Assembly: GCA_047519465.1 (NCBI GenBank)
Contig: JAPVTA010000262.1
Coordinates: forward strand, 11,220-75,219
Direction: 5' to 3'
Source: Thermodesulfobacteriota bacterium
Lineage (GTDB): Bacteria > Desulfobacterota > BSN033 > UBA1163
Length of the DNA: 64,000 nucleotides
Shown: in pieces, positions 1,770 through 47,222 of the stretch
Layout of the letters: every line of letters begins with the position of its first letter
Position numbering within the stretch: position 1 is the first letter of the stretch
The notes under the pieces: generated by a model
What the model was told of the DNA's origin: nothing
What the model saw: only the letters and a program-made list of their open reading frames with translations
The model's database searches: none
Made by a program: the position numbers and the translations under genes

Positions 1770-1807
1770 ATTGAGTCTGTCCATAGACTAAGGTTTTCAT
1801 AAGAAGT

Positions 1808-1877
1808 GTCATTCCGGCAAAAGCCGGAATCCAGTCTTTTCAATATCTCTGGATGCCGGATCAAGTCCGGCATGACG
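1808..1877. repeat. REP/MITE-like intergenic hairpin element, copy 1 (short form)
   Basis: GTCATTCCGGCAAAAGCCGGAATCCAGTCTTTT plus TGCCGGATCAAGTCCGGCA hairpin; shares modules with copies at 2839 and 4331. Confidence 0.7.
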
Positions 1878-1887
1878 GAAAAGACGC

Positions 1888-2801: not shown

Positions 2802-2838
2802 AGCCAGTGTAGTGATTCAGACATTACTTTAGAGAGAC

Positions 2839-2950
2839 CGTCATTCCGGACCCGCCTTGCCGACCCGCAGGCGAGGCAGGCTTGATCCGGAATCCAGTCT
2901 TTTCACTTGGATTCCCGCCCCGTACTTGATACGGGGCGGGAATGACAACC
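2839..2950. repeat. REP/MITE-like intergenic hairpin element, copy 2
   Basis: Contains GTCATTCCGG…CCGGAATCCAGTCTTTTCACTTGGATTCCCGCCCCGTACTTGATACGGGGCGGGAATGACAACC; 3' 60 nt are the reverse complement of the 5' part of copy 3. Confidence 0.8.
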
Positions 2951-3000
2951 CTCATTATCATTGCAAAGAAATGTTAGATTCACTACACTAGTCACAGATT

Positions 3001-4263
3001 ATGAAGTTCACGCTCATTTACCCGAAATGGAAGAAACTCAGGGGCCAGACGGAATTCCACCTTCCTCCGCACGGCCCTGTTGTCTTTGCTGCGACACTGC
3101 CCAGAGACGTGGAAATTACTTTCACCGATGAGAACCTGGAGACAATCGATTTCAGCGATCGGGCAGATCTCATCGGGATCTCCATGATGCTGACGAGCCA
3201 ACTGAAACGGGGTTGGGAAATCGCGGAAGAGTACCGCAGGCGGGGCAGGAAGGTCATCTGCGGCGGCATTGCAACGATGCTTCATGCCGAAGAGACGTCC
3301 CTTCATGCCGATGCGGTCTTCCTCGGGGAGGCGGAAGGACGGATGGAGCAGGTCCTGGATGATTTTCGAAATAACCGACTCCGGAAGGTCTACGACTACC
3401 TGACAGACTTCCCACCCATCGCTTCCGTCGGCACGGCCCGGCGGGACATCCTGAAACGGCAGCTTTACTCCTACAAAGGAATCCAGATGGTCGATCTTTT
3501 TCATGCCTCGCGGGGGTGTCGGTTCGACTGCTACCCATGCTGCATGAGCTTCGTTGGAGGAAGGAAGTTCCGTCCCCGTCCTTTCGAGAAGGTGGTGGAG
3601 GAGCTGACGGCCATTGACAACAACCGTCTGTTTATCGTTGACAATTCTCTATCCCAGGATACGGCATGGCAAAAACAACTCTTCCGTGAGATGATTCCTT
3701 TGAAAAAAAAGTGGTGCTGCCACCCCATCGGGGACGACGATGAAGTCCTCAATCTGGCGGCCCAAGCCGGGGCGTGGTTCGTATATCATGCCATCTTCGA
3801 CACCTCGGACTTCATTCGCAACCGGGTCAAGCGCTATCACGACTTCGGGATCGGGGTGGAGGGAACAATCCTCCTGGGCCTCGACCGCCACACGGAGGAT
3901 TCTATCCACCGCCTCATCGATTTTCTCTTAGAGATAGAATTGGATCTGGCTGAGTTCACTGTATTGACCCCCTTTCCCCACACTCGCGCCTTTACGGACC
4001 TGCAGAGTGAGGGACGGATCCTTTCTTACAACTGGAACGACTATACCTGCGACCAGGTGGTGTTCCAGCCAAAAAAGATGAGCCCGGAGCGTCTTCAGCA
4101 GTTATACGATGAGGCATGGAAAATCTTCTATCGGGAGAAATCCCAACCCTACAGGATGTTCGAACTCTTCGAAAGGGTCATCGACAAGGAAATGGCGGAT
4201 GGTAGCTTCCAGCGGCAGCCTCGGACTCGGGGGAGCCGGAAGTTCGGCCGAGGCGAACCATGA
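3001..4263 (+). CDS. cobalamin(B12)-binding radical SAM enzyme
   Basis: 420 aa; N-terminal B12-binding Rossmann-like region; CxxxCxxC radical-SAM motif in SRGCRFDCYPCC. Confidence 0.85.
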   Translation: MKFTLIYPKWKKLRGQTEFHLPPHGPVVFAATLPRDVEITFTDENLETIDFSDRADLIGISMMLTSQLKRGWEIAEEYRRRGRKVICGGIATMLHAEETSLHADAVFLGEAEGRMEQVLDDFRNNRLRKVYDYLTDFPPIASVGTARRDILKRQLYSYKGIQMVDLFHASRGCRFDCYPCCMSFVGGRKFRPRPFEKVVEELTAIDNNRLFIVDNSLSQDTAWQKQLFREMIPLKKKWCCHPIGDDDEVLNLAAQAGAWFVYHAIFDTSDFIRNRVKRYHDFGIGVEGTILLGLDRHTEDSIHRLIDFLLEIELDLAEFTVLTPFPHTRAFTDLQSEGRILSYNWNDYTCDQVVFQPKKMSPERLQQLYDEAWKIFYREKSQPYRMFELFERVIDKEMADGSFQRQPRTRGSRKFGRGEP

Positions 4264-4330
4264 TGTTATGAAGGCTAAACGGAAACAGCAGTGTGGTTAA
4301 TCTAACAGTTTCTCTACAATAATAACGAAG

Positions 4331-4460
4331 GTTGTCATTCCCGCCCCGTATCAAGTACGGGGCGGGAAATCCAGAGTTGAAAGGACTGGATTTCCCCTTG
4401 TCAAGCACCCCGTGTCAAGCACGGGGCAGGCTAAGGCAGGCTTATCAAGTCCGGAAAGAC
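4331..4460. repeat. REP/MITE-like intergenic hairpin element, copy 3 (inverted relative to copy 2)
   Basis: GTTGTCATTCCCGCCCCGTATCAAGTACGGGGCGGGAAATCCAG… and GGCAGGCTTATCAAGTCCGG module. Confidence 0.8.
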
Positions 4461-4572
4461 AGTCTCGGTAAAGTAATTTTTGAATGACATCAGTAGCGAT
4501 TGGGAAAAATTGCTTAAGAGCTGGGGCAAAGATATCTCGCTGACTGTAATCACCTCATGGATGGTGTCATAA

Positions 4573-4815
4573 ATGCAAAAAGAGGAAGCCCTCAAAAAGG
4601 TATCCGAATATTTGGTGACACAATTTGAAATTCCTTCGGAAAAGATAAGTCCTGATGCAAACCTGTTTAAAGATCTCGAGATGGACAGTATTGATGCCTT
4701 AGATTGGTTCGCGGCAATGCAGTCGGAGATCGGTCTTCCTATTATCGAGAAAGAGCTCAAGAGGATAAGAACCGTTCAGGACGTGGTAGACTATGTGGTC
4801 CGGAATTTGAAATAA
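4573..4815 (+). CDS. acyl carrier protein (second copy)
   Basis: 80 aa, LEMDSIDALDW Ser-containing 4'-PP motif. Confidence 0.85.
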   Translation: MQKEEALKKVSEYLVTQFEIPSEKISPDANLFKDLEMDSIDALDWFAAMQSEIGLPIIEKELKRIRTVQDVVDYVVRNLK

Positions 4816-4816
4816 C

Positions 4817-5206
4817 ATGCCGATATCCCCCGAGAGATGGCTGCCTCTGAAGGATCTCCGGATGACCGCCGAAGGCCGTTGGGAATCCATGGTACGATTC
4901 GAACCCTCTTCGGAATGGTTCTCAGGTCACTTTGATGAATGCCCTCTGGTGCCTGGCGTGGCGCTCCTTGCCTTGGCGGCTGAAATGGTCAAAAGACAAG
5001 GTCTTGAGCAGGGACGTCGTATTGAGGTTTCCGGCTTTTCCAGGGTGAGGTTCAAGCAGTTAGTCTTTCCAGATGAGGAACTGCAAATCTCTGTGGCAGC
5101 CATGCCCTTAGGGCCCGAGGCAAAGCTTGATTTTCATATCACTTGCCGCGGAGATACAGTTGCCCAGGGTTTATTGAAAGCCCGTGAAGAAGTTCCCCGC
5201 CGATGA
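4817..5206 (+). CDS. FabA/FabZ-like 3-hydroxyacyl-ACP dehydratase (hot-dog)
   Basis: 129 aa; SGHFDECPLVPGVALLALAAEM matches FabZ/ApeI-type active-site region; start 1 nt after ACP stop. Confidence 0.75.
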   Translation: MPISPERWLPLKDLRMTAEGRWESMVRFEPSSEWFSGHFDECPLVPGVALLALAAEMVKRQGLEQGRRIEVSGFSRVRFKQLVFPDEELQISVAAMPLGPEAKLDFHITCRGDTVAQGLLKAREEVPRR

Positions 5207-5262: not shown

Positions 5263-6156
5263 ATGAAGGCTTTCGTTCACGAGACGCTCATCAGGGTTTC
5301 TCTTCTCCTGGGCTCCTGGCCCATCCGGTTCTTCGCCTGGTGGATCGCCACGGGATACTTCCTCTTTCTTTCTTCGAGGAGAAGATCAAGTATCTGCCTC
5401 TATGAAGTGATCTTTCCCGAAAAATCGCGATGGTATTATCTTTATTGCACCTGGCGCCAGTTTCACTCCTACGCAGCCACTTTTGCGGAGCGGATTGAGT
5501 TCGATAGAAATAAACGGCTAACCACCTCGACCCAGGGAAGGGAAAACCTAGTAGAGGTGGCCAGAAGAGGGAGAGGGGGAGTGATCCTCATGTCCCATCT
5601 GGGCAGTTTCGAGATTGCTGCAGGCGTGTTTCGAGAAGTGGGGCCCAAGCTTCTTTTGATCATGGGTGAAAAGGAAGCAAAACAGGTGGCCCGGGATCAG
5701 CGCGAAGCCATGAAGGCGCGAGGAATCCATATTCAGGTGGCCGCTGCAGGAGAGGAGTTTCCCTTCGCCGGGGTGGAGGCCATTCAGTTCGTGAGAGAAG
5801 GAGGCTTCGTCTCTGTCGCCGGTGACCTCGTTTGGACCGAACAGCGCTCCCGTCTGCCGGTAACTCTCTTCGGGCATGAGGTGGGCCTCTCCGCAGGTCC
5901 TCATCTCCTCGCCCTGGTTTCAAACGCGCCCCTCTTCACGATGTTTGCTTTTCGAGCTGAAAAAGGAAAATACCTGATCACGATGTCTTCTCCGAGGGAG
6001 GTGAAGGCAACATCCCGTTCTGAAAGAAGTGCGGCCCTCCAAGCGAGCGCACAGGCATACGCCAATGCTCTGGAAGAGATGGTGCGCCAGCACCCTTTCC
6101 AGTGGTACATCTTTGAGCCCTTCTTTGGACCCGTAGCGGCTGATACGAGGAAATAA
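5263..6156 (+). CDS. lysophospholipid/lipid A acyltransferase family (LpxL/HtrB-like)
   Basis: 297 aa; membrane N-terminus; C-terminal HPFQWYIFEPFF typical of LpxL-family (ApeD-like) acyltransferases. Confidence 0.7.
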   Translation: MKAFVHETLIRVSLLLGSWPIRFFAWWIATGYFLFLSSRRRSSICLYEVIFPEKSRWYYLYCTWRQFHSYAATFAERIEFDRNKRLTTSTQGRENLVEVARRGRGGVILMSHLGSFEIAAGVFREVGPKLLLIMGEKEAKQVARDQREAMKARGIHIQVAAAGEEFPFAGVEAIQFVREGGFVSVAGDLVWTEQRSRLPVTLFGHEVGLSAGPHLLALVSNAPLFTMFAFRAEKGKYLITMSSPREVKATSRSERSAALQASAQAYANALEEMVRQHPFQWYIFEPFFGPVAADTRK

Positions 6157-6339: not shown

Positions 6340-8511
6340 TTGGAACGTAGGCGGGTCTTTATCACTGGAATGGGAATCATAAGTTCTCTTGGCCAAGGGG
6401 TGGGCCGTCATGTCGATTCTTTGAAAAAGAATTGTTCCGGAATTGAACCGCTTGCACTATTCACCCCGTCGCCGGGCAATCTCCTTCCAGCCGGTGAAAT
6501 TCCCAATTTTAAGCAAACCCTGAACGTTCCTCGGACACACGAACTTGCTTTCCTGGCTGCCCAGGAGGCGCTTTCAACTACTCGGGTCATCCTCGATGCA
6601 ATCATCCTCGGCACGACGACTGGCGGCATGCCGTTTACTGAAGAGCTTTTGAGAAAAAATCAAAAAGATGCGGATCAATACAAATATCATTCAACCTCCT
6701 CAGTGGCTGAATTTCTTGCGGGCGTTCTGCGCTGCAGTGGTCTTGTCCTCACGATCACGACGGCGTGTTCATCGGGCGCGGTTGCGATCAAGCTAGCCTA
6801 TGAGCTGCTCTCCTCTGGCAAAGCGAATCGTGTGCTCGCCGGCGGTGCGGATGCACTCTGCCGGCTCACTTATTATGGATTCAATTCATTGCAGCTCATT
6901 GACCCTTCCGGTGCGCGTCCTCTTGACCTTGACAGAAACGGCATGACGGTGGGCGAAGGTGCTGCGATGCTCCTCTTGGAAGCGGGAGAATCAAGTCCTG
7001 ACAACGCGATTGCAGAGATTTTAGGCGGAGGGCTATCCTGCGACGCGTATCATCCCACAGCACCGCATCCAGAAGGCAAGGGAGCTCTCGCTGCTATGGA
7101 AAAGGCCTTAGAAGCCGCGGGCATTATTCCTGCGGATATCGAATATATCAATCTCCACGGAACCGGAACCAAGGACAATGACCTCGCCGAAGCAAAGGCG
7201 ATTCATTCCGTTTTTGGTGATCATCTTCCTCCCCTGTCATCAGTGAAAGGAGCTACCGGCCACTCCCTGGCAGCTTCAGGCGCGATCGAATCTGTCATCT
7301 GCGCGGCAGCCATTCAGGAAGGACTCATCCCGGCAAATACGGGCTGCGTTAACCCGGACCCGGAATTGAATTTAAAACCGGCTCTCGCTCCCCTTGAGCA
7401 GAAGGTTGCCGTAGCCCTGTCCAACTCCTTCGGGTTTGGTGGCAACAACGCTTGCCTTGTCCTGGCCGATCCTCGGTCCAAGCACGAAAGACAGAAGCGG
7501 GCCGTATCATTTGGATTTGAAGTTTTAGGGTGCGCTTGCGTCACCGGAGCAGGCAACCTGGAGCAGACATTGAAGAATTTAGATGAAGGAAAAACCTGCA
7601 GCGGAACTCTGCCTCTTGCTGATCTATCAAAGAAGCTCCCAGTCCGTGAGGTCCGTCGACTCAAGCGGTTACCAAGGCTTGCGCTTGCCCTGGCCACGGA
7701 AGCGTCTGAAAGCTCACGGCCATCTCAAACACCATCATCTATCTTCTTCGGCACATCATGGGGTCCGCTATCCGAGACATATCACTTTCTCACGAAGCTC
7801 TATGAATCAAATGAGCAGTTTGCGAGCCCCACCGAATTTGTCGGCTCAGTGCACAATGCTCCCGCAGGCCAGGTGGCGATGATGCTAAACGCAACCGGTC
7901 CCAACATCACCACCACCGGCGGCGATTACTCCTTTGAACAGGCGTTATTTGCCGCGTCCCTGGCTGTGTGCGCCAGCGATCACAGCGTGCTGGTCATGGG
8001 AGCTGACGAACACCACGAGATTTTGTCTCCACTGTTTGACAAATCGGTTTGGATCGGCTCGAATCCGTCCGACGGCGGCGGGGCGCTCATGATACGCAAA
8101 ACAGAAAAGGTATCCGGATTACGGATCGCGGTTATTTTTTTTGAAAATACCAGCAACAATCCGTCTATCGTTCAATCGCTCCTTCACCACCTTGGAGAAT
8201 CGGATGAGATCCGATCGAAATACGGTGCCGTTTTTGTCGGAATTCCTGCGGGAGAGCGAGCGAACTGTGAAAAGCAGGTCCGTGAAATTATTTCAGGCGC
8301 AGATTTCAACGGCCCGGTCGTTGATTTCCGTAAATTCACCGGTGAATTCGGGTCGGCCACTGCTGCGGCAGCGGCCCTTGCGGTAAGATTCGTACAGAAC
8401 GGGATAATCCCTGGCTATCTTTCAGGCGGCGCGGAAAGCCGCCTCAACGGAAGGGGAATACTCCTCCTGGGTCTGGGAAGGTTCCTCACCGCCGTCGAAG
8501 TGTTACCGTAA
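6340..8511 (+). CDS. fused ketosynthase - KS-like (CLF-type, Cys-less) two-domain protein
   Basis: 723 aa; N-domain has TACSSG / HGTGT / GHSLAASG; C-domain is KS-like (HNAPAGQVAMMLNATGPN) but active-site Cys replaced (TTTGGDYS); TTG start with AAGGAG RBS 8 nt upstream. Confidence 0.75.
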   Translation: MERRRVFITGMGIISSLGQGVGRHVDSLKKNCSGIEPLALFTPSPGNLLPAGEIPNFKQTLNVPRTHELAFLAAQEALSTTRVILDAIILGTTTGGMPFTEELLRKNQKDADQYKYHSTSSVAEFLAGVLRCSGLVLTITTACSSGAVAIKLAYELLSSGKANRVLAGGADALCRLTYYGFNSLQLIDPSGARPLDLDRNGMTVGEGAAMLLLEAGESSPDNAIAEILGGGLSCDAYHPTAPHPEGKGALAAMEKALEAAGIIPADIEYINLHGTGTKDNDLAEAKAIHSVFGDHLPPLSSVKGATGHSLAASGAIESVICAAAIQEGLIPANTGCVNPDPELNLKPALAPLEQKVAVALSNSFGFGGNNACLVLADPRSKHERQKRAVSFGFEVLGCACVTGAGNLEQTLKNLDEGKTCSGTLPLADLSKKLPVREVRRLKRLPRLALALATEASESSRPSQTPSSIFFGTSWGPLSETYHFLTKLYESNEQFASPTEFVGSVHNAPAGQVAMMLNATGPNITTTGGDYSFEQALFAASLAVCASDHSVLVMGADEHHEILSPLFDKSVWIGSNPSDGGGALMIRKTEKVSGLRIAVIFFENTSNNPSIVQSLLHHLGESDEIRSKYGAVFVGIPAGERANCEKQVREIISGADFNGPVVDFRKFTGEFGSATAAAAALAVRFVQNGIIPGYLSGGAESRLNGRGILLLGLGRFLTAVEVLP

Positions 8512-8663: not shown

Positions 8664-10403
8664 ATGTACGATAATCTGACGAAGGGCCTGGCCGCAGGCT
8701 ATGAAAGGATTGTGGCGTGGGCCGATATCCTTGACCGGATCAATGTCTATCCTGTACCCGACGGTGACACCGGCCGCAATCTTGTCATTACCCTGGGCGC
8801 CTGCAGGAATATCAACGAAAATCCCGATTCACTGAGCCGAGAGATCCTGCTTTCGGCCAGGGGTAATTCCGGAAACATTGCTGCCGGTTTTTTTGCAGGG
8901 TTCCTCACCTGCAAGGACTTGTCGTCTCTTCCCCTATCCGCCGAGGCCGGCCGTAATCTCGCGTACCGAGCTGTTCCCAACCCTCAACAAGGAACCATGA
9001 TCTCTCTGTTTGATACCCTGGTCGCATCTCTGAAGAAGACCCCTCCCGAAGAGACAGGGATATGGGTGGAATCAATAATCCATGACATGGAAGAGACGGT
9101 TAGGAATACCAGAGAACAATTGCTCGAACTCAGGGAGGCTGGGGTGGTTGATGCAGGAGCCCTCGGCATGCTCGTCTTCTTCGATCCTCTGTTGAATACT
9201 CTGGCTGGCCGCACGGTCAGGCCCTCTCTCTTCACGGATGATCTGAAGGATTCCTTCAACATCTCCGGAACGTGGCAGGACCGAAAATACCATGGCTACT
9301 GCCTTGACGTGTTGCTCAAGATCGAGCACGAAGAGCAGGAAGTTGTGAAGCATATCATGGATGTGGGAGAATCGTTGGTCGCCATGCCCCATGGCGAGTG
9401 CCTCAAAGTACACCTCCATGCCACGGACAGAGAGAGGGCAAGACAAGACCTCACCGCCGTCGGAGCCATCCTGAGCTGGGCCGAAGATGACCTTGCTCAG
9501 CAGACCTTCCGGTTCGGCGAAGCGAGAAAAAATCAGGCCATCCATATCATGACGGATGCGGCTGGCTCCATCACAAGGGATCTGGCTCAGAGCCTTGGAA
9601 TTACTCTCCTCAACAGTTATATCGCCATCGGGAATCGTTTTCTCCCTGAGACCTACGTAGATCCTTCCCAGCTCTTTGCCGCCATGAAGGCTGGAGCCAA
9701 AGTCTCTACGGGCCAAGCCTCAACCGTGGAGCGACAAGAGTGCTATAACAACGTCATGAAAATCCATGACCGCGTCCTCTATCTCTGTGTGGGCTCTTTC
9801 TACACCGGCAATTATGATGTGGCTATCAAATGGAAGGCTGAGAATGATCCCGATGACAGGATGACCATCATTGATACAGGGATCGCCTCGGGCAAGCTCG
9901 GTCTCGTAGCCAGGGCTGCTGCAGAACTCTCCCTCACTGTCAGCGACCCTTTAAAGGTCATCGCCTTCGCCAGGGGTGCGATTCAGAATGTACAGGAATA
10001 TATCTTCCTGGACACGCTGCAATTCTTAGCTGCCGGCGGTAGAATCTCAAAGACCAGTGCCTTTTTTGGCGATGTCCTTCGTATAAAACCGATCGTCAGT
10101 CCCTATCCTGACGGGGCTCGGAAGATCGGGGTAGTTAGAAACCTCAGAGATCAGGTAAAATTCGCCTTCCGTCGTCTTGAACAGGACATTTTAAAAGATC
10201 AAAGGGCGGCTCTGCTTCTCGAGTACTCAGACAACAAGGAGTGGCTTGAGGGGGAAATCAAACCGGAGATAGAGCGCAGGTTTCCTTTGATGCAAATCAT
10301 CGTACAACCTCTCTCCCTTACCACTGCTGCCCATGTGGGCCCGGGCTCCTGGGGCATGGCCTTTCTCAAAGAAGACTCCCAAAAAGGCGACCCATATGTA
10401 TGA
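8664..10403 (+). CDS. FakA-like fatty-acid kinase (DAK2 domain + DegV-like C-terminal domain)
   Basis: 579 aa; N-terminal INVYPVPDGDTGRNL matches DAK2 domain of FakA/YloV; C-terminal half DegV-like. Confidence 0.7.
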   Translation: MYDNLTKGLAAGYERIVAWADILDRINVYPVPDGDTGRNLVITLGACRNINENPDSLSREILLSARGNSGNIAAGFFAGFLTCKDLSSLPLSAEAGRNLAYRAVPNPQQGTMISLFDTLVASLKKTPPEETGIWVESIIHDMEETVRNTREQLLELREAGVVDAGALGMLVFFDPLLNTLAGRTVRPSLFTDDLKDSFNISGTWQDRKYHGYCLDVLLKIEHEEQEVVKHIMDVGESLVAMPHGECLKVHLHATDRERARQDLTAVGAILSWAEDDLAQQTFRFGEARKNQAIHIMTDAAGSITRDLAQSLGITLLNSYIAIGNRFLPETYVDPSQLFAAMKAGAKVSTGQASTVERQECYNNVMKIHDRVLYLCVGSFYTGNYDVAIKWKAENDPDDRMTIIDTGIASGKLGLVARAAAELSLTVSDPLKVIAFARGAIQNVQEYIFLDTLQFLAAGGRISKTSAFFGDVLRIKPIVSPYPDGARKIGVVRNLRDQVKFAFRRLEQDILKDQRAALLLEYSDNKEWLEGEIKPEIERRFPLMQIIVQPLSLTTAAHVGPGSWGMAFLKEDSQKGDPYV

Positions 10404-36010: not shown

Positions 36011-36230
36011 CAGCGATAGGAGCAAAATTTCATGAGAAATTTTTTCCTTGACAGTCAACCTATTTAAGAGTATTTTCCAATCATTAGTTCCCACCTGTCT
36101 CTAATCAACCTCATAACCTAAGTTCTAACCTTGTGGGGTGGAGTATGGGGAATTGTCAGAAGATGCCCACACGATAGGCCCCAAGGGAGTTCAATATCCT
36201 CTTGGTGCTCCTTTCTTCGCCCTTCGGACG
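36011..36230 (+). promoter_or_regulatory. conserved promoter-leader element A (TTGACAGTCAA -35 palindrome, -10 TATTTT, leader with 11-codon uORF)
   Basis: -35 36048-36053, 17-nt spacer, -10 36071-36076; about 85% identical over about 100 nt to element B (43797-43912); leader shares blocks and uORF (36145-36177, MGNCQKMPTR) with element C. Confidence 0.55.
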
Positions 36231-36728: not shown

Positions 36729-36864
36729 GTTGGAGTTTTCACTAAAGCCTTCATAATGGACTGAAGATCGAAACCCCGCTTCTCAAAAAGAAAGCGAAGT
36801 TTTCTGTTTTGGATGGAGGTCATTATTGGGGGTATGATTATTCCTAAGCATGAAGGAGGTAATC

Positions 36865-37896
36865 ATGGAAGAGATAAGCGGAAAGACGCAGATGGCAAAG
36901 ATCCGATCCTTCGAAAAAGGTTTTATAGGTATCCATCTTATCAACATTGGCGCCGAACTCGGAATATTTGAAGCGCTCAATAAGGAAAAAGATGGGCTAA
37001 CCGTATCGGACCTGGCTGTAAAGCTCAACCTTCACGAACCTTACCTGAAGATCTGGTGCCAGACTGCCTATCATTACGAAATTCTCGACGCCGATAAGCA
37101 GGGTCGGTTTAGACTTCAGCCTTTTCTTGATGAGATTCTGGGAGACAGAACTCATTTCAGAAACTACCTGGCCAACGTTTCTTTTGATGTCAAAGTCATA
37201 GGAGAAGGCTTTCCGATGGCAATTGAATTATTTCGAACGGGCGGGTACGCGGAAAGCTATAATTCGCCTGAGTTTTCCAAGAGGGCTTACGAACCAACAA
37301 AAAATATATACATGGCTTTTCTTTATATGATTCTCCCGAAAGCCGAGCATTTGAAACAAAGCCTCGAACAAGGAATCCGGTTCTTGGATATCGGCTGCGG
37401 CAATGGTAATTTGATTATCCAATTGGCCCAAGTTTTTGGGAACAGTACATTTGTTGGTGTGAATCCCGATGTGCACGGTATTCAATCAGCCAGATCGACC
37501 ATTTCTCGATTGGGCCTGGGGAACCGTGTGACCGTCGAACAGATGGGAGGGGAAGCGATGTCCTACAAAGACGAATTCGACATGGCGAGTATGGTGGTGA
37601 CACTTCATGAAATCCGACCGGCCGTACGAGAGGAAGTTGTTAAGAAAGCATATCATGCACTAAAAAGGGATGGGCGCCTCCTCATTCTCGACTTTCCTTA
37701 TCCCAGCAAATTGGAGGATTTTAGAAACCCGATATTCGACTTCGCCATAATAGATCAGTTCTGCGAATGTTTCGGAGGATTTATCCACCTCGACAATGAG
37801 CAGCAGAATGAAGTCATCTTGAATGCCGGATTTACAAATATCCAGCGCATGCCCATCGGCAAGGGGATGTTCGATTTCATCACGGCTATAAAATGA
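36865..37896 (+). CDS. class I SAM-dependent methyltransferase
   Basis: SAM-binding motif LDIGCGNGNL; AAGGAGG RBS before ATG 36865. Confidence 0.75.
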   Translation: MEEISGKTQMAKIRSFEKGFIGIHLINIGAELGIFEALNKEKDGLTVSDLAVKLNLHEPYLKIWCQTAYHYEILDADKQGRFRLQPFLDEILGDRTHFRNYLANVSFDVKVIGEGFPMAIELFRTGGYAESYNSPEFSKRAYEPTKNIYMAFLYMILPKAEHLKQSLEQGIRFLDIGCGNGNLIIQLAQVFGNSTFVGVNPDVHGIQSARSTISRLGLGNRVTVEQMGGEAMSYKDEFDMASMVVTLHEIRPAVREEVVKKAYHALKRDGRLLILDFPYPSKLEDFRNPIFDFAIIDQFCECFGGFIHLDNEQQNEVILNAGFTNIQRMPIGKGMFDFITAIK

Positions 37897-39109: not shown

Positions 39110-39700
39110 TCAAGGGTCGTCGCAGGTGATCAGAGTGATCACATGTCCATTCCCTTCGGCGTGTCTGACAGGGTAAGTCTTTTCTTGATACTTCATCATC
39201 CCATCTTCCTCTCCCACGCTAACTACCTCTACTTCCCGGATAGCTTGAAATAGATCAAGACCCAATGCCTTGGCTGCTGCCTCCTTGGTGGTCCAGGCGC
39301 GAGTGCCGGCCCTCTGAGGGCCCAAACCGGATAGTAAGATAAGGTCTCTTTCCCTAGGTGACATAAAGAGATGCTTCGTCCTTATTACTTTCTCTGAAAC
39401 CATCTCAAGGTCAACGCCAATCCGATGCCTGTACGCAACTGCTGCTATTAGCTGTCCACAATGGGAGACCGAGCAATAGATTCCGCTCTCGTTGAGGCAA
39501 GGCTTTACGTCATCAGGGCTAAGGGTTTCAATCGTCCGGTCAGGCCTGTCCTTTTCTACAAGGTTAAGTTGGCGGGCCAGTCTCTTCAGAGCGACTCTCG
39601 CCGCGGCAAATCCTTTCCGCCTTCGTGGACCCATTCTCATCGCCCTTGCGGCTTCGCGCGGCGTAAAGAGATTCTCCTCGATAAGGGAGATGGTTTCCAT
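39110..39700 (-). CDS. 4'-phosphopantetheinyl transferase (Sfp/EntD-type)
   Basis: Motifs SVSHCG…GVDLE and WTTKEAAAKALG; start assigned to internal Met (METISL) because the ORF N-terminal extension runs through a GC hairpin. Confidence 0.7.
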   Translation of the reverse strand: METISLIEENLFTPREAARAMRMGPRRRKGFAAARVALKRLARQLNLVEKDRPDRTIETLSPDDVKPCLNESGIYCSVSHCGQLIAAVAYRHRIGVDLEMVSEKVIRTKHLFMSPRERDLILLSGLGPQRAGTRAWTTKEAAAKALGLDLFQAIREVEVVSVGEEDGMMKYQEKTYPVRHAEGNGHVITLITCDDP

Positions 39701-39835
39701 ATCGAGGAGGACCATCCCAAGACAGGCCGCCCGCAGCCGCTCGATCCCAGGCCATATGGGGGAATCGTTCGTAAGAGAAGAAGCAGAAATAAAGTCTGGA
39801 CTTATTTCGTTCAAGGCCGAACTCAGCCTCCAGCA

Positions 39836-39882
39836 CCCCTCACCCTCCCCTCTCCCCACTGGGGAGAGGGGAGGGTGAGGGG
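39836..39882. other. perfect 22-bp-stem GC-rich hairpin (CCCCTCACCCTCCCCTCTCCCC-ACT-GGGGAGAGGGGAGGGTGAGGGG)
   Basis: Exact reverse-complement arms with 3-nt loop, in divergent intergenic region between PPTase (-) and thioesterase (+). Confidence 0.8.
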
Positions 39883-40312
39883 GAGCCGAGCCAAATGTCA
39901 AAATTGTTTCTGTGTTTCATCAGTAATGATAGCGATCGAGAGAGGGCCGTGTCAAGATCAGTCAAAGAGAACAGATCAGCGGAGGTAAATCCCGATTTAG
40001 AAAAGAAAGCCCTTTCATCAACGCGTCATTGCGAACACCTGAAAGGGGTGTGGCAGTCTTCGGGAAAAAGCGAGACTGCTTCGTTTCATTCGCAGAGACC
40101 GTTCCCTAAGTCGGGATGAGGGGGCTGCTGTCGCAATTGAAAAAGTATTTATGTTATGATATTTTTAGTTGCCGTTTTGGATGCGTACGTTTTAATACAG
40201 TGGCATTAAATAGAGGTCATTGTGAAGAGTTAAGTGAAGACAGTGGGATCGCTTACAATGATGATGTGAGGGGAATTAATGCGTTCGTTTTAGTTCCCAT
40301 TGAAAATTACTT

Positions 40313-43796: not shown

Positions 43797-43912
43797 CAAA
43801 TCAGCAATAGGAGTGAAATTTCAGAGAAAATTTTTACACAGAGAAAATTTTTGCCTTGACAGTCAACAAATTTAAGGGTATTTCCTAAGCATTGGTTTCC
43901 ACTTGTCTCTAA
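43797..43912 (+). promoter_or_regulatory. conserved promoter element B upstream of STAND-SARP regulator
   Basis: -35 TTGACA 43856-43861 in palindrome TTGACAGTCAA, 17-nt spacer, -10 TATTTC 43879-43884; tandem 15-nt duplication CAGAGAAAATTTTT x2 at 43821-43855. Confidence 0.55.
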
Positions 43913-43994
43913 TCTTATTGGAATCTGATGCTTCTCTTGAGTTCTTTTAATTGTGTTCTGAAATCATCCCAATAGGAACGGAAGCGGGTGAATC

Positions 43995-46900
43995 ATGGGC
44001 AAGCTAATCCGCCCTATCCTCACAGATGTCTTCTTAAGGAAGCGGCTGTTTCTTATGCTGAATCAGATGCGAAAACAGCCAGCTATATGGGTCTCCGGGC
44101 CCGCCGGTTGTGGGAAGACCACCCTGGTAAACAGCTACTTGGAGGTTCGAAGAATTCCTTGCCTGTGGTACGAGGTAGACGAGGGCGACTCCGATCTGGC
44201 AACTTTTTTCTATTACCTGGGTCAAGCTGTAAAAAAGGCTGAGCCCAGAAAAAGGATGGTCTTCCCCCTTCTTACATCCGAATATCTGCAAGATATCCCA
44301 ACTTTTACGAAGCGCTATTTTGAAAAGCTCTATGAAACGCTGCGAATCCCCAGTGTAGTTGTATTCGATAATTACCAAGAGGTATCTGCGGAATCACCAT
44401 TTCATGAGGCAATCCTGAAGGGCCTCTCCAATCTTCCACCGGGGATAAATGCCATAGTAATCAGCCGCAGCAGCCCCCCATCTCCCTTCGCCAGGCTCCG
44501 AGCTAATCATCTTATGGAAATTCTTGCCTGGAAAGAACTGCGCTTGACTGTAGAAGAGTCAGCTGGGATCGTCAAGCTGCGGAGTAAGCAGAAACTCTCC
44601 AAAGAGACAATGGCACAACTGCATAAGGCTGCGGACGGCTGGGCAGCGGGACTGGTGCTGATGTTGGAAAGATCTCAGATTGAAGATATTGAACCTCAAA
44701 AAGCTGGAGCAGTCAGGCCCGAAGAGGTCTTTGACTATTTTGCCAGTGAAATCTTCGATACAGCGGACAAGGAGGTTCAGGAATTTCTTCTGAAGACATC
44801 CATTTTGCCCAGGATGACCTCAAGGATGGCAGAAGAGCTGACCGGCCTCTCTTCGGCGAGTCGCCTCCTATCCATGCTAAGCCGCAATAACTACTTCACC
44901 GAGAAACGTATCCATTCCGAGCCTATCTACCAGTATCATCCGTTGTTCAGGGATTTTCTCCTTTCACGGGCCAAAGAAACATTTCCTCGAGAGAGTCTTT
45001 TGGCTTTGTTCCGTCGTGCGGCCTCCCTTCTTGACGACGATGGTCAGATCGAAGCTGCAGTTTCACTCCTTCACGAGGCTAGCGACTGGGAGGGAATGGT
45101 TCGTTTAATAATGAAGCATGCCCCATCGATGGTGGAGCAGGGACGAAGTCGCCCGCTCGAAGAGTGGCTGAATTGTCTTCCAAAAGAGATTATGGAGAAC
45201 AATCCCTGGCTTCTATTCTGGATGGGCATATGCAACCTGTCATTCTCTCCTCCCCAAAGTCAACCCTATTTTGAGGAAGCTTATCAGAGATTTGAAAGCC
45301 AAGGGGATACCGTCGGAATCATTCACGCCTGCTGGGGAATGGTTCAGTCGATCTATATTATGGAGGCCGATTATACACCTCTGGACCGTTGGATTTCTGT
45401 GCTTGAAGAACTTGGGCGTACAATCAAGGAGTTTCCTTCTGAAGAAATCGAACTTCGGTTTGCGTCTGCTATGTTTTCTGCACTGGTATGTAGACGACCC
45501 CAGCATCCTGAGATTGAGATATGGGCGAACCGCGCCGTTTCCCTTGCCGAACACTCTTCAGACCTAACCCTCAAATTTCAAACTATATCTACAGAGGCAA
45601 CCTATCGGATCAGCATCGGAGACTTCACGAAATCCCTGCTGGCCATGAACTCTCTGAAGAAAATGGCTCAATCCAGAGAGTCTTCCCCTTTAAATCAAAT
45701 TCTATTAGCCGTCTTGGAGGCTTACTATAATAACCTTTCGGGATTGCCTGAAAAATGCCTAAAGGCTGTATCCGATGTCTTGGAGTTATCCCGAACGACC
45801 GGCATCCACACGTTTGATAATGCTGTTCTATATCAAGGCGTATCGAGTGCGCTGATGATTAGCGATTACAAAACGGCTTCCAACTATCTGGAACAGATGG
45901 GTTCGTCTTTAAGCCATGCCAGGCCGTGGGATGTCGCCATTTACCACAGCATAAAAACCGATGAAGCTATGTTTCGGGAAGACATCGAACAAGCCGCGTA
46001 TCATATCGACCTTGGGACGAAAATGAGGCTTGAAATAGGATTTGCTCTCGTTACGGGCCGGTGTCATATGCAGAATGCCTACGTGATGCATGCCCTGGGA
46101 AGGCATCGAGAAGCGTCAGAGTATCTAGCCCATGCAGTTGATTTCAGCCGCAGCGTAAAGGGGCCAAACAACGAATATGCTGCAATGTTGTTTGAGTCAC
46201 TTTTTGCCTTCGATCAAGGGGAAGAAGAATCGGGGTCGGCTTTGCTCAGGAAGTCCTTTGCCCTTGGGAAGGAGAGAGGATATTTTGGCGCCTGGGGCCC
46301 CCTGCCTTCCGGGATGGCCAAGCTTTGTATCAAAGCCCTCCAGGCCGGGATCGAGGTCGAATACACGCAGGAACTCATTCGAAGGCTTCATATAGCTCCG
46401 GATCAATCTGCAATCCATTTAGAAAACTGGCCGTGGTATTTGAAAGTATTTACTCTAGGCCAGTTTGAACTGTTAAAAGATGGGAAACCAATCCAGTTTT
46501 CCAGAAAGATTCAGCAAAAACCTCTTTCGTTGCTCAAGGCATTAATTGCCTTGGGAGGACGAGAGGTGAAAGAAGAACAGATAGCGGATTTTCTTTGGCC
46601 GGAGCCAGATGGGGACGCTGCTCATAATGCTTTTCTTTCTGCCCTGCACCGGCTCCGACAGTTGGTTGGTTATGAAAAAGCTCTCCATTTAAGGGAAGGA
46701 AAACTGACCATGGACGATCGATACTTCTGGGTCGATGCCTGGGCACTGGAACGTATTTGGAAGCAGGCGGACGCCCAGAGGAAGGAAGGGCAGATCGACG
46801 TCGCCGTCCAAATGAACGAAAAAGCCGTCGAGATGTATAGGGGACATTTTCTTAGCGGAGAAATCGAGCAGCCTTGGATGGTATCCCTCCGTGAACGTTT

Positions 46901-47222
46901 GAGAAGCAAGTACTTGAGCTGTGTAAACCGTTTGGGCCAGCACTGGCTGCAAGTTGGAAATGGAGAAAAAGCCATAGAATGCTACCAGCGGGGTTTGGAT
47001 GCGGACGACCTGGCCGAAGAATTTTACCAGGGCCTCATGACTTGCTATCAACGCCTGAACCGAGAAACGGAAGCAAGGGCAGTCTACCATCGCTGCCGGA
47101 AAAACCTTTCCTCAGCCCTTGGAATCGAACCATCGGCAAAAACGGTAGCCATTTATGAATCCATAATAAAAAAGGACAATGTTCATGGTCAAATGGCAAG
47201 AGCGAATCAAAGGCTAAACTGA
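43995..47222 (+). CDS. large transcriptional regulator: N-terminal STAND/AAA ATPase, helical repeat region, C-terminal SARP module (OmpR-type wHTH + BTAD)
   Basis: 1075 aa; Walker A GPAGCGKTT near N-terminus; C-terminal VFTLGQFELLKDGKPIQF…ADFLWPE (wHTH) followed by BTAD-like region. Confidence 0.7.
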   Translation: MGKLIRPILTDVFLRKRLFLMLNQMRKQPAIWVSGPAGCGKTTLVNSYLEVRRIPCLWYEVDEGDSDLATFFYYLGQAVKKAEPRKRMVFPLLTSEYLQDIPTFTKRYFEKLYETLRIPSVVVFDNYQEVSAESPFHEAILKGLSNLPPGINAIVISRSSPPSPFARLRANHLMEILAWKELRLTVEESAGIVKLRSKQKLSKETMAQLHKAADGWAAGLVLMLERSQIEDIEPQKAGAVRPEEVFDYFASEIFDTADKEVQEFLLKTSILPRMTSRMAEELTGLSSASRLLSMLSRNNYFTEKRIHSEPIYQYHPLFRDFLLSRAKETFPRESLLALFRRAASLLDDDGQIEAAVSLLHEASDWEGMVRLIMKHAPSMVEQGRSRPLEEWLNCLPKEIMENNPWLLFWMGICNLSFSPPQSQPYFEEAYQRFESQGDTVGIIHACWGMVQSIYIMEADYTPLDRWISVLEELGRTIKEFPSEEIELRFASAMFSALVCRRPQHPEIEIWANRAVSLAEHSSDLTLKFQTISTEATYRISIGDFTKSLLAMNSLKKMAQSRESSPLNQILLAVLEAYYNNLSGLPEKCLKAVSDVLELSRTTGIHTFDNAVLYQGVSSALMISDYKTASNYLEQMGSSLSHARPWDVAIYHSIKTDEAMFREDIEQAAYHIDLGTKMRLEIGFALVTGRCHMQNAYVMHALGRHREASEYLAHAVDFSRSVKGPNNEYAAMLFESLFAFDQGEEESGSALLRKSFALGKERGYFGAWGPLPSGMAKLCIKALQAGIEVEYTQELIRRLHIAPDQSAIHLENWPWYLKVFTLGQFELLKDGKPIQFSRKIQQKPLSLLKALIALGGREVKEEQIADFLWPEPDGDAAHNAFLSALHRLRQLVGYEKALHLREGKLTMDDRYFWVDAWALERIWKQADAQRKEGQIDVAVQMNEKAVEMYRGHFLSGEIEQPWMVSLRERLRSKYLSCVNRLGQHWLQVGNGEKAIECYQRGLDADDLAEEFYQGLMTCYQRLNRETEARAVYHRCRKNLSSALGIEPSAKTVAIYESIIKKDNVHGQMARANQRLN

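Follow-up and report, generated by a model that had tools for sequence, protein, structure and literature searches.

MITEs derived from IS630/Tc1-mariner transposons occur in bacteria, for example the Correia elements of Neisseria and the Nezha elements of cyanobacteria. Another class of dispersed repeats, the REPIN-RAYT systems, was reportedly described by Bertels and Rainey in 2011. The NTS repeats of Neisseria have the consensus CGTCATTCCCGCGMAVGCGGGAATCYRG, and a search pattern for the Ssn-related motif (SRM) has been published as well (Nat Commun 2025, PMC11893778). SsnA is a GIY-YIG nuclease that cuts the NTS/Ssn-related motif as single-stranded DNA, and the GTC before the palindrome and the C after it are positions critical for cleavage and binding by SsnA (PMC11893778).

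The stretch of DNA analysed here (the window, 64 kb) contains an operon of the order KS-CLF-ACP-rSAM-ACP-DH-acyltransferase-KS, which is a lipid synthesis operon of the aryl-polyene-like type, and its B12-binding radical-SAM gene (rSAM) is bracketed by inverted copies of a hairpin repeat. With a probability of roughly 80%, the operon already contained the rSAM gene when three of its spacers were colonised by mobile hairpins with an NTS core, two of which (elements B and C) are MITE-like.

Repeat elements in the operon spacers

The repeats flanking rSAM are real and exceed chance expectation by far. Exactly two sites of the window carry the 33-mer CCCGCCCCGTACTTGATACGGGGCGGGAATGAC, 2914-2946 on the plus strand and 4334-4366 on the minus strand (0.00 expected in shuffles), and inverted arms of 60 nt with 92% complementarity (2912-2971 versus 4309-4368) were returned by a repeat finder, which bears out the opposite orientation of the left and right copies described in an earlier note on this DNA. 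The gene calls for a B12-binding radical-SAM gene between two ACP genes were also correct in that note. The 17-mer GGAATCCAGTCTTTTCA gave four matches with up to three mismatches, versus 0.37 expected, including exact sites at 1826 and 2889 and a site with two mismatches at 4378-4394 on the minus strand. The copies had been placed at 2839-2950 and 4331-4460; their presence as inverted members of one family stood, but their extent had to be redrawn, the inverted similarity filling nearly both rSAM-flanking spacers (~2803-2991 versus 4289-4495, with 154 of 178 aligned positions identical). Elements B and C share a perfect run of 37 nt, CCCGCCCCGTACTTGATACGGGGCGGGAATGACAACC, the first 33 nt of which were confirmed by exact search, and each of the two is a long imperfect palindrome on its own. 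The inverted orientation of B versus C carries no statistical weight, because there are only two copies and the prior is 50%.

Table 1. Repeat elements, their units and the neighbouring genes, with positions in the 64-kb window
Feature	Position	Strand	Description
Element A	1770-1887	+	KS-CLF spacer; outer left arm TTGAGTCTGTCCATAGAC (1771-1788) and NTS doublet
NTS/SRM unit A1	1807-1834	+	TGTCAT-TCCGGC-AAAA-GCCGGA-ATCCAG
NTS-like unit A2	1849-1877	-	CGTCAT-GCCGGA-CTTGA-TCCGGC-ATCCAG; predicted hairpin
ACP1 gene	2538-2801		gene call confirmed
Element B	2807-2988	+	182 nt; ACP1-rSAM spacer
NTS-like unit B1	2839-2897	+	CGTCAT-TCCGGA-(31-nt nested hairpin and TTGA)-TCCGGA-ATCCAG
Spacer TCTTTTCA	2898-2905	+	directly after unit B1; exact 17-mer at 2889-2905
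NTS-like unit B2	2906-2947	-	TGTCAT-TCCCGCCCCGTA-TCAAG-TACGGGGCGGGA-ATCCAAG; predicted hairpin
B12-binding radical-SAM gene	3001-4263	+	Pfam B12-binding and Radical_SAM
Element C	4291-4493	-	203 nt; rSAM-ACP2 spacer; inverted relative to B
NTS-like unit C1	4333-4374	+	TGTCAT-TCCCGCCCCGTA-TCAAG-TACGGGGCGGGA-AATCCAG
NTS-like unit C2	4386-4461	-	TGTCTT-TCCGGA-(expanded loop, two CTTGA-loop hairpins)-GGGGAA-ATCCAG
ACP2 gene	4573-4815		gene call confirmed

A third, truncated relative of the repeats, absent from the earlier note, was found in the KS-CLF spacer (element A), and all three copies lie inside 2.7 kb of the window, a clustering that could reflect permissive sites, local hopping or selection. 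Tail-to-tail doublets of units are present in all three elements (Table 1). Element A lacks its right outer arm and adjoins the KS stop codon TAG (1767-1769); it is 93% identical to locus L114 over 84 nt and 94% identical to L053 of Desulfosarcina widdelii over 71 nt, and its arm type, TAGAGTCTGTCCATAAAC, is found again in many loci. The terminal inverted repeats of element B are 2807-2832 (GTGTAGTGATTCAGACATTACTTTAG) and 2963-2988 (GCAAAGAAATGTTAGATTCACTACAC), flanked by the dinucleotides CA (2805-2806) and TA (2989-2990); its spacer is predicted to fold into a single RNA hairpin (-87 kcal/mol, z = -8.7), and in aligned columns it is ~90% identical to copies in the unrelated metagenome contigs L174 and L229. 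Unit B2 holds the exact 33-mer common to element C. Element C starts at its inner end with GTGTGGTTAATCTAACAG from 4291, has a degenerate outer end, ...GAATGACATCAG, finishing at 4493, and is flanked by CA (4289-4290) and TA (4494-4495), while its unit C2 aligns with unit B1.

The spacer ORFs are chance frames that overlap, and the elements have no coding capacity. Rfam gave no match in the window at gathering thresholds and, at an E-value threshold, only FtrB at chance level (E = 0.88, 23.5 bits versus a cut-off of 66), and a tRNA/tmRNA scan of the window returned nothing relevant. The counts of a promoter and terminator scan equalled the shuffled expectation, the hairpin of unit A1 with its T-run being the sole noteworthy item; this unit, read with the subsequent TCTTTT, was flagged as terminator-like.

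The rSAM gene in relatives without the repeats

An exact look-up of the rSAM protein of the window returned no record. More than 120 homologues of the rSAM gene were found (identity 71-94%), and the order KS-CLF-ACP-rSAM-ACP-DH is kept in relatives with an 86-94% identical rSAM. The gene occupies the same position, with these repeats absent, in L001-L004 (94%), L251 (90%), L005 (88%) and L247, L248 and L252 (86-88%), and the ACP and rSAM genes are still adjacent in the more distant L006 and L249 (80-82% identity). The closest relative, L001, lacks all three inserts, and its ACP1-rSAM and rSAM-ACP2 spacers are 16 nt and 101 nt long, respectively. The megablast alignment of the window with L001, at 92% nucleotide identity, is interrupted precisely at 1773-1887, 2807-2991 and 4273-4532, with 106 unrelated nt in L001 in place of the first of these intervals. 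The elements of the window are likewise missing from L251, L005 and L247, and unrelated hairpin inserts are present in the same spacers of L005 and L247/L252. Divergence from L001 is similar along the operon, with 92.3% nucleotide identity in rSAM versus 91-93% in the flanking genes.

These filled and empty sites amount to a presence/absence polymorphism of the elements around an unchanging gene order. The earlier note had proposed that rSAM (± ACP2) was inserted into a pre-existing KS-CLF-ACP-DH operon, and had named the comparison of orthologous clusters as one way to refute it; repeat-free clusters carry rSAM at the same position, and the cassette idea fails. The rSAM gene is an old, fixed member of the operon, bracketed by the elements but outside any mobile unit. 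The bracket arose as a by-product of selfish DNA and does not mark a gene cassette. Since rSAM is ancestral and highly conserved in the pathway, and no recent add-on, its chemistry should be regarded as an integral feature of the product. In annotation work, a gene of a biosynthetic cluster that lies between inverted repeats should not be called a cassette until orthologous loci have been checked.

Insertion footprints and ends of the family

The MAFFT alignment of the right spacer left the gap position ambiguous, after which the footprints were determined by an explicit excision scan. The best excision was 184 nt for element B (182 + 2, versus L001) and 205 nt for element C (203 + 2), the latter leaving a sequence that aligns without gaps to the empty L251 spacer; the empty site of element C in L005 and L251 is a single TAG. 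A separate +2-nt footprint for each element fits two insertions, not one composite event. The outer layer carries terminal inverted repeats of 26 nt, GTGTAGTG...CACTACAC, and members of the family are 130-260 nt in size. Among 19 full-length copies on other contigs, TA adjoins 32 of 37 scorable ends, often within CTAG, and the base outside the family ends was C for 10 of 16 left ends and G for 12 of 16 right ends. The outer layer is MITE-like, with a target of the IS630/Tc1 type. The TA duplication in the window rests on length arithmetic and family statistics, because one TA per copy reads CA.

According to these results, the MITE part of the geometry proposed in the earlier note stands on MITE-like ends and TA flanks; the separate footprints speak against the composite part. 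The target-site duplications that it suggested looking for were recovered as a 2-nt footprint of each element, but not as an intact TA on both sides. Its alternative was right in that the repeats are mobile hairpins of the MITE/REP type.

As TA within CTAG is the habitual target of IS630/Tc1-mariner transposons, the enzyme that moved the elements was probably a transposase of this type supplied in trans. No matching transposase gene was found in the 64-kb window, and a search of 250 loci for an autonomous partner with GTGTAGTG ends and a DDE transposase returned only one spurious pair. The absence of such a partner lowers the claim that the elements are members of the IS630/Tc1 MITEs, not the claim that they behave alike.

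The NTS core and its link to GIY-YIG genes

The core of the elements consists of two inverted copies of (C/T)GTCATTCC-hairpin-GGAATCCAG with TCTTTTCA between them, and its sequence is that of the NTS/Ssn-related motif known from Neisseria. Unit A1 fits the published SRM pattern and differs from the Neisseria NTS consensus by four mismatches, two of which form a compensatory pair. This is the only one of the six units in the window that matches the strict SRM pattern; the remaining five keep GTCAT...ATCCAG, but expanded stems or loops put them outside it. In every one of the six, GTC precedes the palindrome and C follows it. Identity with the motif is complete in five related loci that contain the exact NTS consensus, and 72 sites in 64 loci match it with at most two mismatches. 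Among simple units, 195 of 275 have a fully paired 6-bp stem, and the 25 stem variants include all Watson-Crick types at three positions; the stem covaries, and the hairpin is probably under selection.

Small GIY-YIG genes accompany the motif in related loci. A 99-aa GIY-YIG ORF in L054 has inverted copies of the 17-mer on both sides, and a 105-aa ORF in L102 adjoins the motif on one side; both were assigned at the level of the Pfam family GIY-YIG (E-values of 1.7e-17 and 6e-15, respectively). A tblastn search with an approximate GIY-YIG consensus gave matches in L054, L102, L128 and L208, and the same query detected no GIY-YIG gene in the 64-kb window. A PDB sequence search with the L102 protein gave no match. 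The units of the window may be cut by an Ssn of the host, if it has one.

Distribution of the family

The 17-mer was counted in at least 120 genome stretches and a 25-mer in at least 120 metagenome contigs, with Thermodesulfobacteriota, Nitrospirota and other groups as hosts. The distribution is intergenic, 113 of 122 copies lying outside long open frames, and copies occur in co-directional, convergent and divergent gene contexts, with no strand preference with respect to the direction of transcription (19 copies sense, 15 antisense). The repeat is a DNA-level element rather than an RNA gene. The core is better conserved than the terminal repeats and sits in many different outer shells, which is unusual for a simple MITE. 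Matches of the 17-mer in viral contigs (n = 16), 15 of them at one site of a conserved sequence and one unrelated, are coincidental, because none has the GTCATTCC context. A literature search for MITEs in Deltaproteobacteria returned no papers.

The present data extend the family of NTS/Ssn-related motifs to Thermodesulfobacteriota, Nitrospirota and other groups, and the motif is seen here in REPIN-like doublets that lie within MITE shells with TA flanks. Clean pairs of filled and empty sites are provided as well, along with material for testing whether Ssn spreads its own repeats and how the hairpins affect operon expression or recombination.

Origin of the bracket around rSAM

In the explanation favoured here, a non-autonomous mobile hairpin element would have colonised each of the three operon spacers, later than the split from the closest sampled relative. 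Elements B and C would be full-length members of one MITE-like family with ~26-nt ends, inserted at TA with a 2-bp duplication and preferably within CTAG. The core would be an NTS-ssn-NTS unit reduced to a gene-less doublet, much as REPINs accompany a RAYT, and the same core module flanks the small GIY-YIG (putatively Ssn-type) genes of related loci. Two independent insertions lie in inverted orientation with a probability of 50%, so the geometry around rSAM is most simply a coincidence. The elements could affect the operon through strong mRNA hairpins, an occluded rSAM start region or a long-range B-C duplex.

A composite transposon or cassette, with the inverted copies as its ends and rSAM (± ACP2) carried into a KS-CLF-ACP-DH operon, would account for the copies on both sides of the gene and for the TA or CA that adjoins the outer ends of both. 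However, this reading is refuted by the repeat-free orthologous clusters that carry rSAM: all close relatives examined have the gene between the two ACP genes and spacers down to 16 nt, the ACP-rSAM adjacency persists at 80-82% identity, and the divergence of rSAM from L001 tracks that of its neighbours. In addition, the +2-nt footprint is a separate one for each element, at both ends, and the left copy is ~90% identical to copies on unrelated contigs versus 87% to the right copy, so that a cassette is extremely improbable. The inverted pair might instead act as a unit, either as a DNA inversion switch that flips rSAM by homologous recombination or as a long-range RNA duplex that loops out the rSAM ORF for excision by RNase III, given that the ~190-nt copies have most aligned positions and the perfect 37-nt run in common and that their RNA co-fold is predicted at -238 kcal/mol with 138 intermolecular pairs (local hairpins, -86 and -74 kcal/mol). 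We consider this very unlikely: no invertase or recombinase gene was found nearby, the orientation of rSAM is that seen in all relatives, the local hairpins form first during transcription, and the co-fold ignores ribosomes and the closure cost of a 1.3-kb loop.

E. coli REP sequences and the Correia elements of Neisseria alter mRNA stability and processing, which offers a precedent for intra-operon RNA hairpins selected for stabilising the mRNA as REP sequences do, for partial termination or as sites of RNase III, which would set the ACP:rSAM:ACP ratio. Folding predicts highly stable structures (-87 kcal/mol, z = -8.7; -76 kcal/mol, z = -3.9), unit A1 together with its T-run has a terminator-like score, hairpin B extends at its base from 2 nt past the ACP1 stop to ~8 nt before the rSAM AUG, and other hairpin elements stand in the same spacers of L005 and L247/L252. 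However, the closest relatives have the same operon without the elements, the orientation of the family is random with respect to transcription, many copies are situated between genes that converge or diverge, and B and C, being in opposite orientation, present different strands in the RNA. Absence from the closest relative and the lack of strand bias argue against a conserved RNA function; a selected role in the mRNA, including the differential stability proposed in the earlier note, is unlikely. It is similarly doubtful, though conceivable, that Ssn mobilises or seeds its own repeats, the doublets landing in the centre of palindromic MITEs, which would explain one core in many TA-flanked shells. 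If so, gene-less NTS doublets would be MITE-like derivatives of an IS-like NTS-ssn-NTS unit, a GIY-YIG analogue of RAYT-REPIN, and the inverted pair around rSAM would be an NTS-gene-NTS unit, cut on both sides when single-stranded, or alternatively a ~140-bp mRNA duplex allowing excision of the rSAM message by RNase III.

Comparison with known systems

A close likeness is found in the NTS/SRM repeats (dRS3/NTS) of Neisseria (PMC11893778), which have the same core, GTCATTCC-stem-loop-stem-GGAATCCAG, and the exact consensus of which recurs in the related loci. Both are hairpins with oriented, non-palindromic flanks, intergenic and clustered around genes ('NTS-gene-NTS'), and in both the motif flanks small single-domain GIY-YIG genes, here in the related loci L054 and L102. 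Unlike the Neisseria repeats, the units of the window are tail-to-tail doublets with a conserved TCTTTTCA spacer and loops that often contain nested hairpins, and they lie inside a TA-flanked shell of terminal inverted repeats that moved as a unit. The hosts also differ, Thermodesulfobacteriota, Nitrospirota and others being unmentioned in the main text of PMC11893778, and no ssn gene was found in the 64-kb window.

With the IS630/Tc1 MITEs, the elements share a size of 130-260 nt, the non-coding nature, terminal inverted repeats of ~26 nt, a whole-element hairpin if transcribed, TA ends, a 2-bp footprint, a CTAG preference and intergenic insertion, including inside operons. There is no sequence similarity to Correia or Nezha beyond a vague TAGTG start, and the interior is here more conserved than the ends and common to families with different ends. 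The REPIN-RAYT systems resemble the elements in that two inverted short palindromic units form one larger hairpin, dispersed and intergenic, and in that a small nuclease- or transposase-like gene is itself flanked by units. However, the associated gene here encodes a GIY-YIG nuclease, whereas RAYT is a Y1 (IS200/IS605-like) transposase; the conserved 5' bases are GTCA here and GTAG in REPINs; and the limits of the insertions coincide with the outer shell rather than with the doublet. The elements are not members of REPIN-RAYT and are analogous only. The locus shares with composite transposons and cassettes a gene that has a mobile repeat on either side, the two copies being inverted, but here the gene predates the repeats, and the repeats are non-autonomous and were separately inserted. 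The elements are ordinary mobile repeats.

Gene Cluster and Its Repeats

An aryl-polyene-like lipid cluster occupies the first 10 kb of the window (see table); in it, a B12-binding radical SAM gene (rSAM) lies between two ACP genes. The rSAM protein is unusually conserved: metagenome bins of Thermodesulfobacteriota contain at least 120 homologues (71-94% identity), and those with names belong to Desulfobacca, Syntrophales, and 'Deltaproteobacteria'. The substrate of rSAM is presumably an ACP-bound lipid. At 80% identity or more (loci L006 and L249), rSAM adjoins an ACP within aryl-polyene-like clusters, with an MMPL transporter next; in L250 (74%), a gene lacking any Pfam match lies upstream of rSAM, and a thioesterase lies downstream.

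Features of the window and of the GIY-YIG unit in a Cloacimonadota bin (L054)
Feature	Position	Remark
PS-DH fragment	28-441	
Ketosynthase (KS)	561-1769	
Element A	1770-1887	KS-CLF spacer
CLF-like protein	1888-2541	without Pfam match
ACP (ACP1)	2538-2801	
Element B	2807-2988	ACP1-rSAM (left) spacer
B12-binding radical SAM	3001-4263	
Element C	4291-4493	rSAM-ACP2 (right) spacer
ACP (ACP2)	4573-4815	
FabA/ApeI-like dehydratase (DH)	4817-5206	
Lipid-A-type acyltransferase	5263-6156	
Double ketosynthase	6340-8511	
FakA/DegV	8664-10403	
70-nt direct repeat	36037-36106, 43845-43914	86% identical, with TTGACA
Methyltransferase	36850-37896	
Phosphopantetheinyl-transferase ORF	39110-39901	minus strand
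23-nt palindrome	39836-39882	CCCCTCACCCTCCCCTCTCCCCA / TGGGGAGAGGGGAGGGTGAGGGG
AAA/TPR/BTAD regulator	43995-47222	
L054 unit	L054:4893-5340	
L054 left hairpin	L054:4893-4969	with GGAATCCAGTCTTTTCA
L054 GIY-YIG ORF	L054:5002-5301	
L054 inverted 17-mer and hairpin	L054:5302-5340	

The repeats that the earlier note described on both sides of rSAM are real: an exact 33-mer is present at 2914-2946 (+) and 4334-4366 (-), for which the chance expectation is zero, and the repeat finder detected flanking 60-nt arms that are 92% complementary. According to the spacer alignment, the inverted similarity of B and C spans nearly the full spacers (~2803-2991 and 4289-4495). Both spacers are long imperfect palindromes in themselves; the left one is predicted to fold into one 190-nt hairpin (-87 kcal/mol, z = -8.7), and the predicted fold of the right one is less clean (-76 kcal/mol, z = -3.9). 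The KS-CLF spacer holds a shorter family relative, element A. The 17-mer GGAATCCAGTCTTTTCA occurs exactly at 1826 and 2889, and with two mismatches at 4378-4394 on the minus strand. All three elements are located within 2.7 kb, and the remaining 60 kb of the window contain none.

Farther along the window, a perfect 23-nt palindrome with a 1-nt loop sits at the 5' end of the phosphopantetheinyl-transferase ORF; it probably represents a terminator or a repeat element of another kind. The copies of a 70-nt direct repeat, found ~745 nt upstream of the methyltransferase gene and ~80 nt upstream of the large regulator gene, look like a shared promoter/operator region.

Insertion Polymorphism around rSAM

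Gene neighbourhoods were compared for ten of the rSAM homologues. The closest relative among those compared (L001-L004; 94% protein and ~92% nucleotide identity) has identical gene order and an operon free of the repeats, with ACP1-rSAM and rSAM-ACP2 spacers of 16 and 101 nt. The order ACP-rSAM-ACP-DH-acyltransferase is also found in L251 (90%), L005 (88%), and L247/L248/L252 (86-88%). Relatives at 80-82% identity keep the ACP-rSAM adjacency, and an MMPL gene follows. When the window is aligned to L001 by Megablast, the match is interrupted precisely at the three elements (1773-1887, 2807-2991, and 4273-4532); rSAM has diverged from L001 to the same degree as its neighbours (92.3% versus 91-93% identity). 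Because rSAM occupies the same place in relatives that lack these repeats, an outcome that the earlier note itself had named as fatal to its proposal, the idea that the B/C pair delivered rSAM as a cassette into an older operon is refuted. The inverted arrangement of B and C around the gene is best read as coincidence.

Every possible excision was scanned against the relatives' empty spacers. The best right excision (205 nt, 4289-4493) leaves a spacer that aligns gap-free to the empty spacer of L251, and the best left excision (184 nt) leaves 15 nt, versus 16 nt in L001. The lengths defined by terminal repeats are 203 nt for C and 182 nt for B, so each insertion equals the element plus 2 nt. 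In a metagenome scan, a 25-mer taken from the hairpin common to B and C matched at least 120 contigs; among these contigs and the genome loci, 19 contain full-length copies bounded by the same ends (GTGTAGTG..TCAGAAAT..CTTTAC ... GTAAAG..GTTAGA..CACTACAC). In these copies TA adjoins 32 of 37 scorable ends, usually with C beyond it at the left and G at the right, giving a CTAG context. The empty sites of L005 (cccTAGcgattgg) and L251 (atatTAGcaattggg) have one TA exactly at the insertion point, and in both B and C one of the two flanking TAs is now CA. Over aligned columns, B shares ~90% identity with copies from the unrelated contigs L174 and L229, and 87% with C, so B and C are ordinary members of an active family and not a special pair. 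No autonomous partner with the same ends was found among the loci examined.

Element A starts right at the KS stop codon (TAG followed by ATTGAGTCTG in the window, 1765-1790; TAA in L001:4960-4975), and its insertion may have hit the TA of this codon, re-creating a stop. The 39 nt 5' of the CLF start as called in L001 have no window counterpart.

The spacers flanking rSAM were hit repeatedly across relatives (L005, L247/L252), which may mean only that a tightly packed operon offers few non-coding sites. L005 carries an unrelated 214-nt palindromic insert with its own inverted ends (ctcctcttctcc...ggagaggagg) in the ACP1-rSAM spacer (L005:5787-6000). In L247/L252, the rSAM-ACP2 spacer (271 nt) contains a different hairpin element of GTCATTGCGAG...GCAATGAC type (L247:6300-6425; L252:1697-1967), with the repeat GTCATTGCGAGG...GCTTGCAATGAC and a GTCAT...ATGAC frame as in the NTS family described below.

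Conserved Core and the NTS/SRM Family

Within its outer shell, each element contains a doublet: a unit of 28-60 nt, (C/T)GTCAT-stem-loop-stem-ATCCAG, is present twice, tail to tail, arranged as the unit, TCTTTTCA plus a few bases, and the inverse unit. A genome scan with the 17-mer returned at least 120 stretches; nearly all of those listed contain the same doublet, and they come from Thermodesulfobacteriota (Syntrophales, Desulfobacterales, Desulfatiglandaceae), Nitrospirota/Thermodesulfovibrionia, some Gammaproteobacteria, Gallionella, and Cloacimonadota. Matches in 16 viral contigs (L254-L269) were rejected as chance, since none of the 16 has hairpin context; 15 share one site in one conserved sequence, and L255 is unrelated.

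A search of full texts with GTCATTCC turned up a 2025 study of Ssn nucleases (PMC11893778), which describes the Neisseria Transformation Sequence (NTS, CGTCATTCCCGCGMAVGCGGGAATCYRG), extending the dRS3 repeat, and a degenerate Ssn-related motif (SRM). SsnA, a single-domain GIY-YIG protein of 94 aa, recognises the motif solely as single-stranded DNA, for both binding and cleavage, for which GTC before the palindrome and C after it are critical; NTS repeats cluster around genes, and NTS-ssnA-NTS resembles an insertion sequence (PMC11893778). Judged by sequence, the window units appear to belong to the NTS/SRM family, because unit A1 (the first of element A) fits the SRM pattern, five related loci hold the exact NTS consensus, 72 sites in 64 loci match it with two or fewer mismatches, and the GTC and C are retained in each of the six window units. 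The 6-bp stem is perfect in 195 of 275 simple units; its 25 variants show full Watson-Crick covariation at three positions, so the hairpin itself is under selection. Loops of these units are GNRA-like or CTTGA. Elsewhere in the family, nested small hairpins with CTTGA/TCAAG loops are frequent within the hairpin loops (e.g., CCCCGTACTTGATACGGGG).

L054 holds a complete unit, in which the same hairpin and 17-mer, inverted, stand on either side of a 99-aa GIY-YIG ORF; this unit resembles a gene-bearing parent of the window doublets. In L102, a 105-aa GIY-YIG ORF adjoins one motif copy. The window doublets would then be the remainder of an NTS-GIY-YIG-NTS unit minus its gene.

Over 71 nt, the element A core shares 94% identity with a copy on the chromosome of Desulfosarcina widdelii PP31 (L053:1248-1318), a cultivated species of a different order. 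This is far above what housekeeping-gene divergence would suggest, and indicates that the repeat is either strongly constrained or has spread horizontally.

DNA Element or RNA Function

Of 122 exact 17-mer matches in the genome-scan loci, just nine lie in long open frames; 19 are sense and 15 antisense between co-directional genes, 14 lie between convergent and 15 between divergent genes. Together with the lack of any Rfam match for the repeats, this scarcity in open frames and mixed orientation and context give the profile of a DNA-level selfish repeat. An effect on this operon is nevertheless plausible from position and predicted folding. Hairpin B is predicted to extend from 2 nt past the ACP1 stop codon to ~8 nt before the rSAM AUG, so the start region would be sequestered, and unit A1 is followed by a T-run, resembling a terminator. 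If present in one transcript, B and C could pair with each other: co-folding gave -238 kcal/mol and 138 intermolecular pairs, compared with local hairpins at -86 and -74 kcal/mol, in a calculation that ignores loop-closure cost, co-transcriptional folding, and ribosomes.

Relation to Known Systems

The earlier note's alternative to a cassette, REP/MITE-type hairpins, named the right kind of element: an NTS/SRM doublet is enclosed by MITE-like shells that target TA, and the elements are additional members of kinds already known. They matter chiefly for their link to the Ssn/NTS system and for a clean insertion polymorphism. TA targeting, duplication of 2 bp, and a CTAG preference are typical of IS630/Tc1-mariner elements and their MITEs, such as Correia elements, and the family of B and C resembles them in these respects. 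An outer inverted repeat encloses 49 of 98 doublets (0 of 98 in the shuffled control); these outer repeats are of many unrelated sequence types (e.g., GATGGTCTCGTAAAAAGTCG..., TAGAGTCTGTCCATAAAC..., TATACAYGACGACATAAG..., AGTCCATAATTG... in loci from L007 to L246), whereas the core is nearly constant across phyla. In ordinary MITE families the pattern is the opposite of this more conserved interior. The doublet may prefer to insert into the middle of palindromic elements, or else an interaction such as Ssn binding may conserve the core. The window doublets relate to GIY-YIG units as REPINs relate to RAYT genes.
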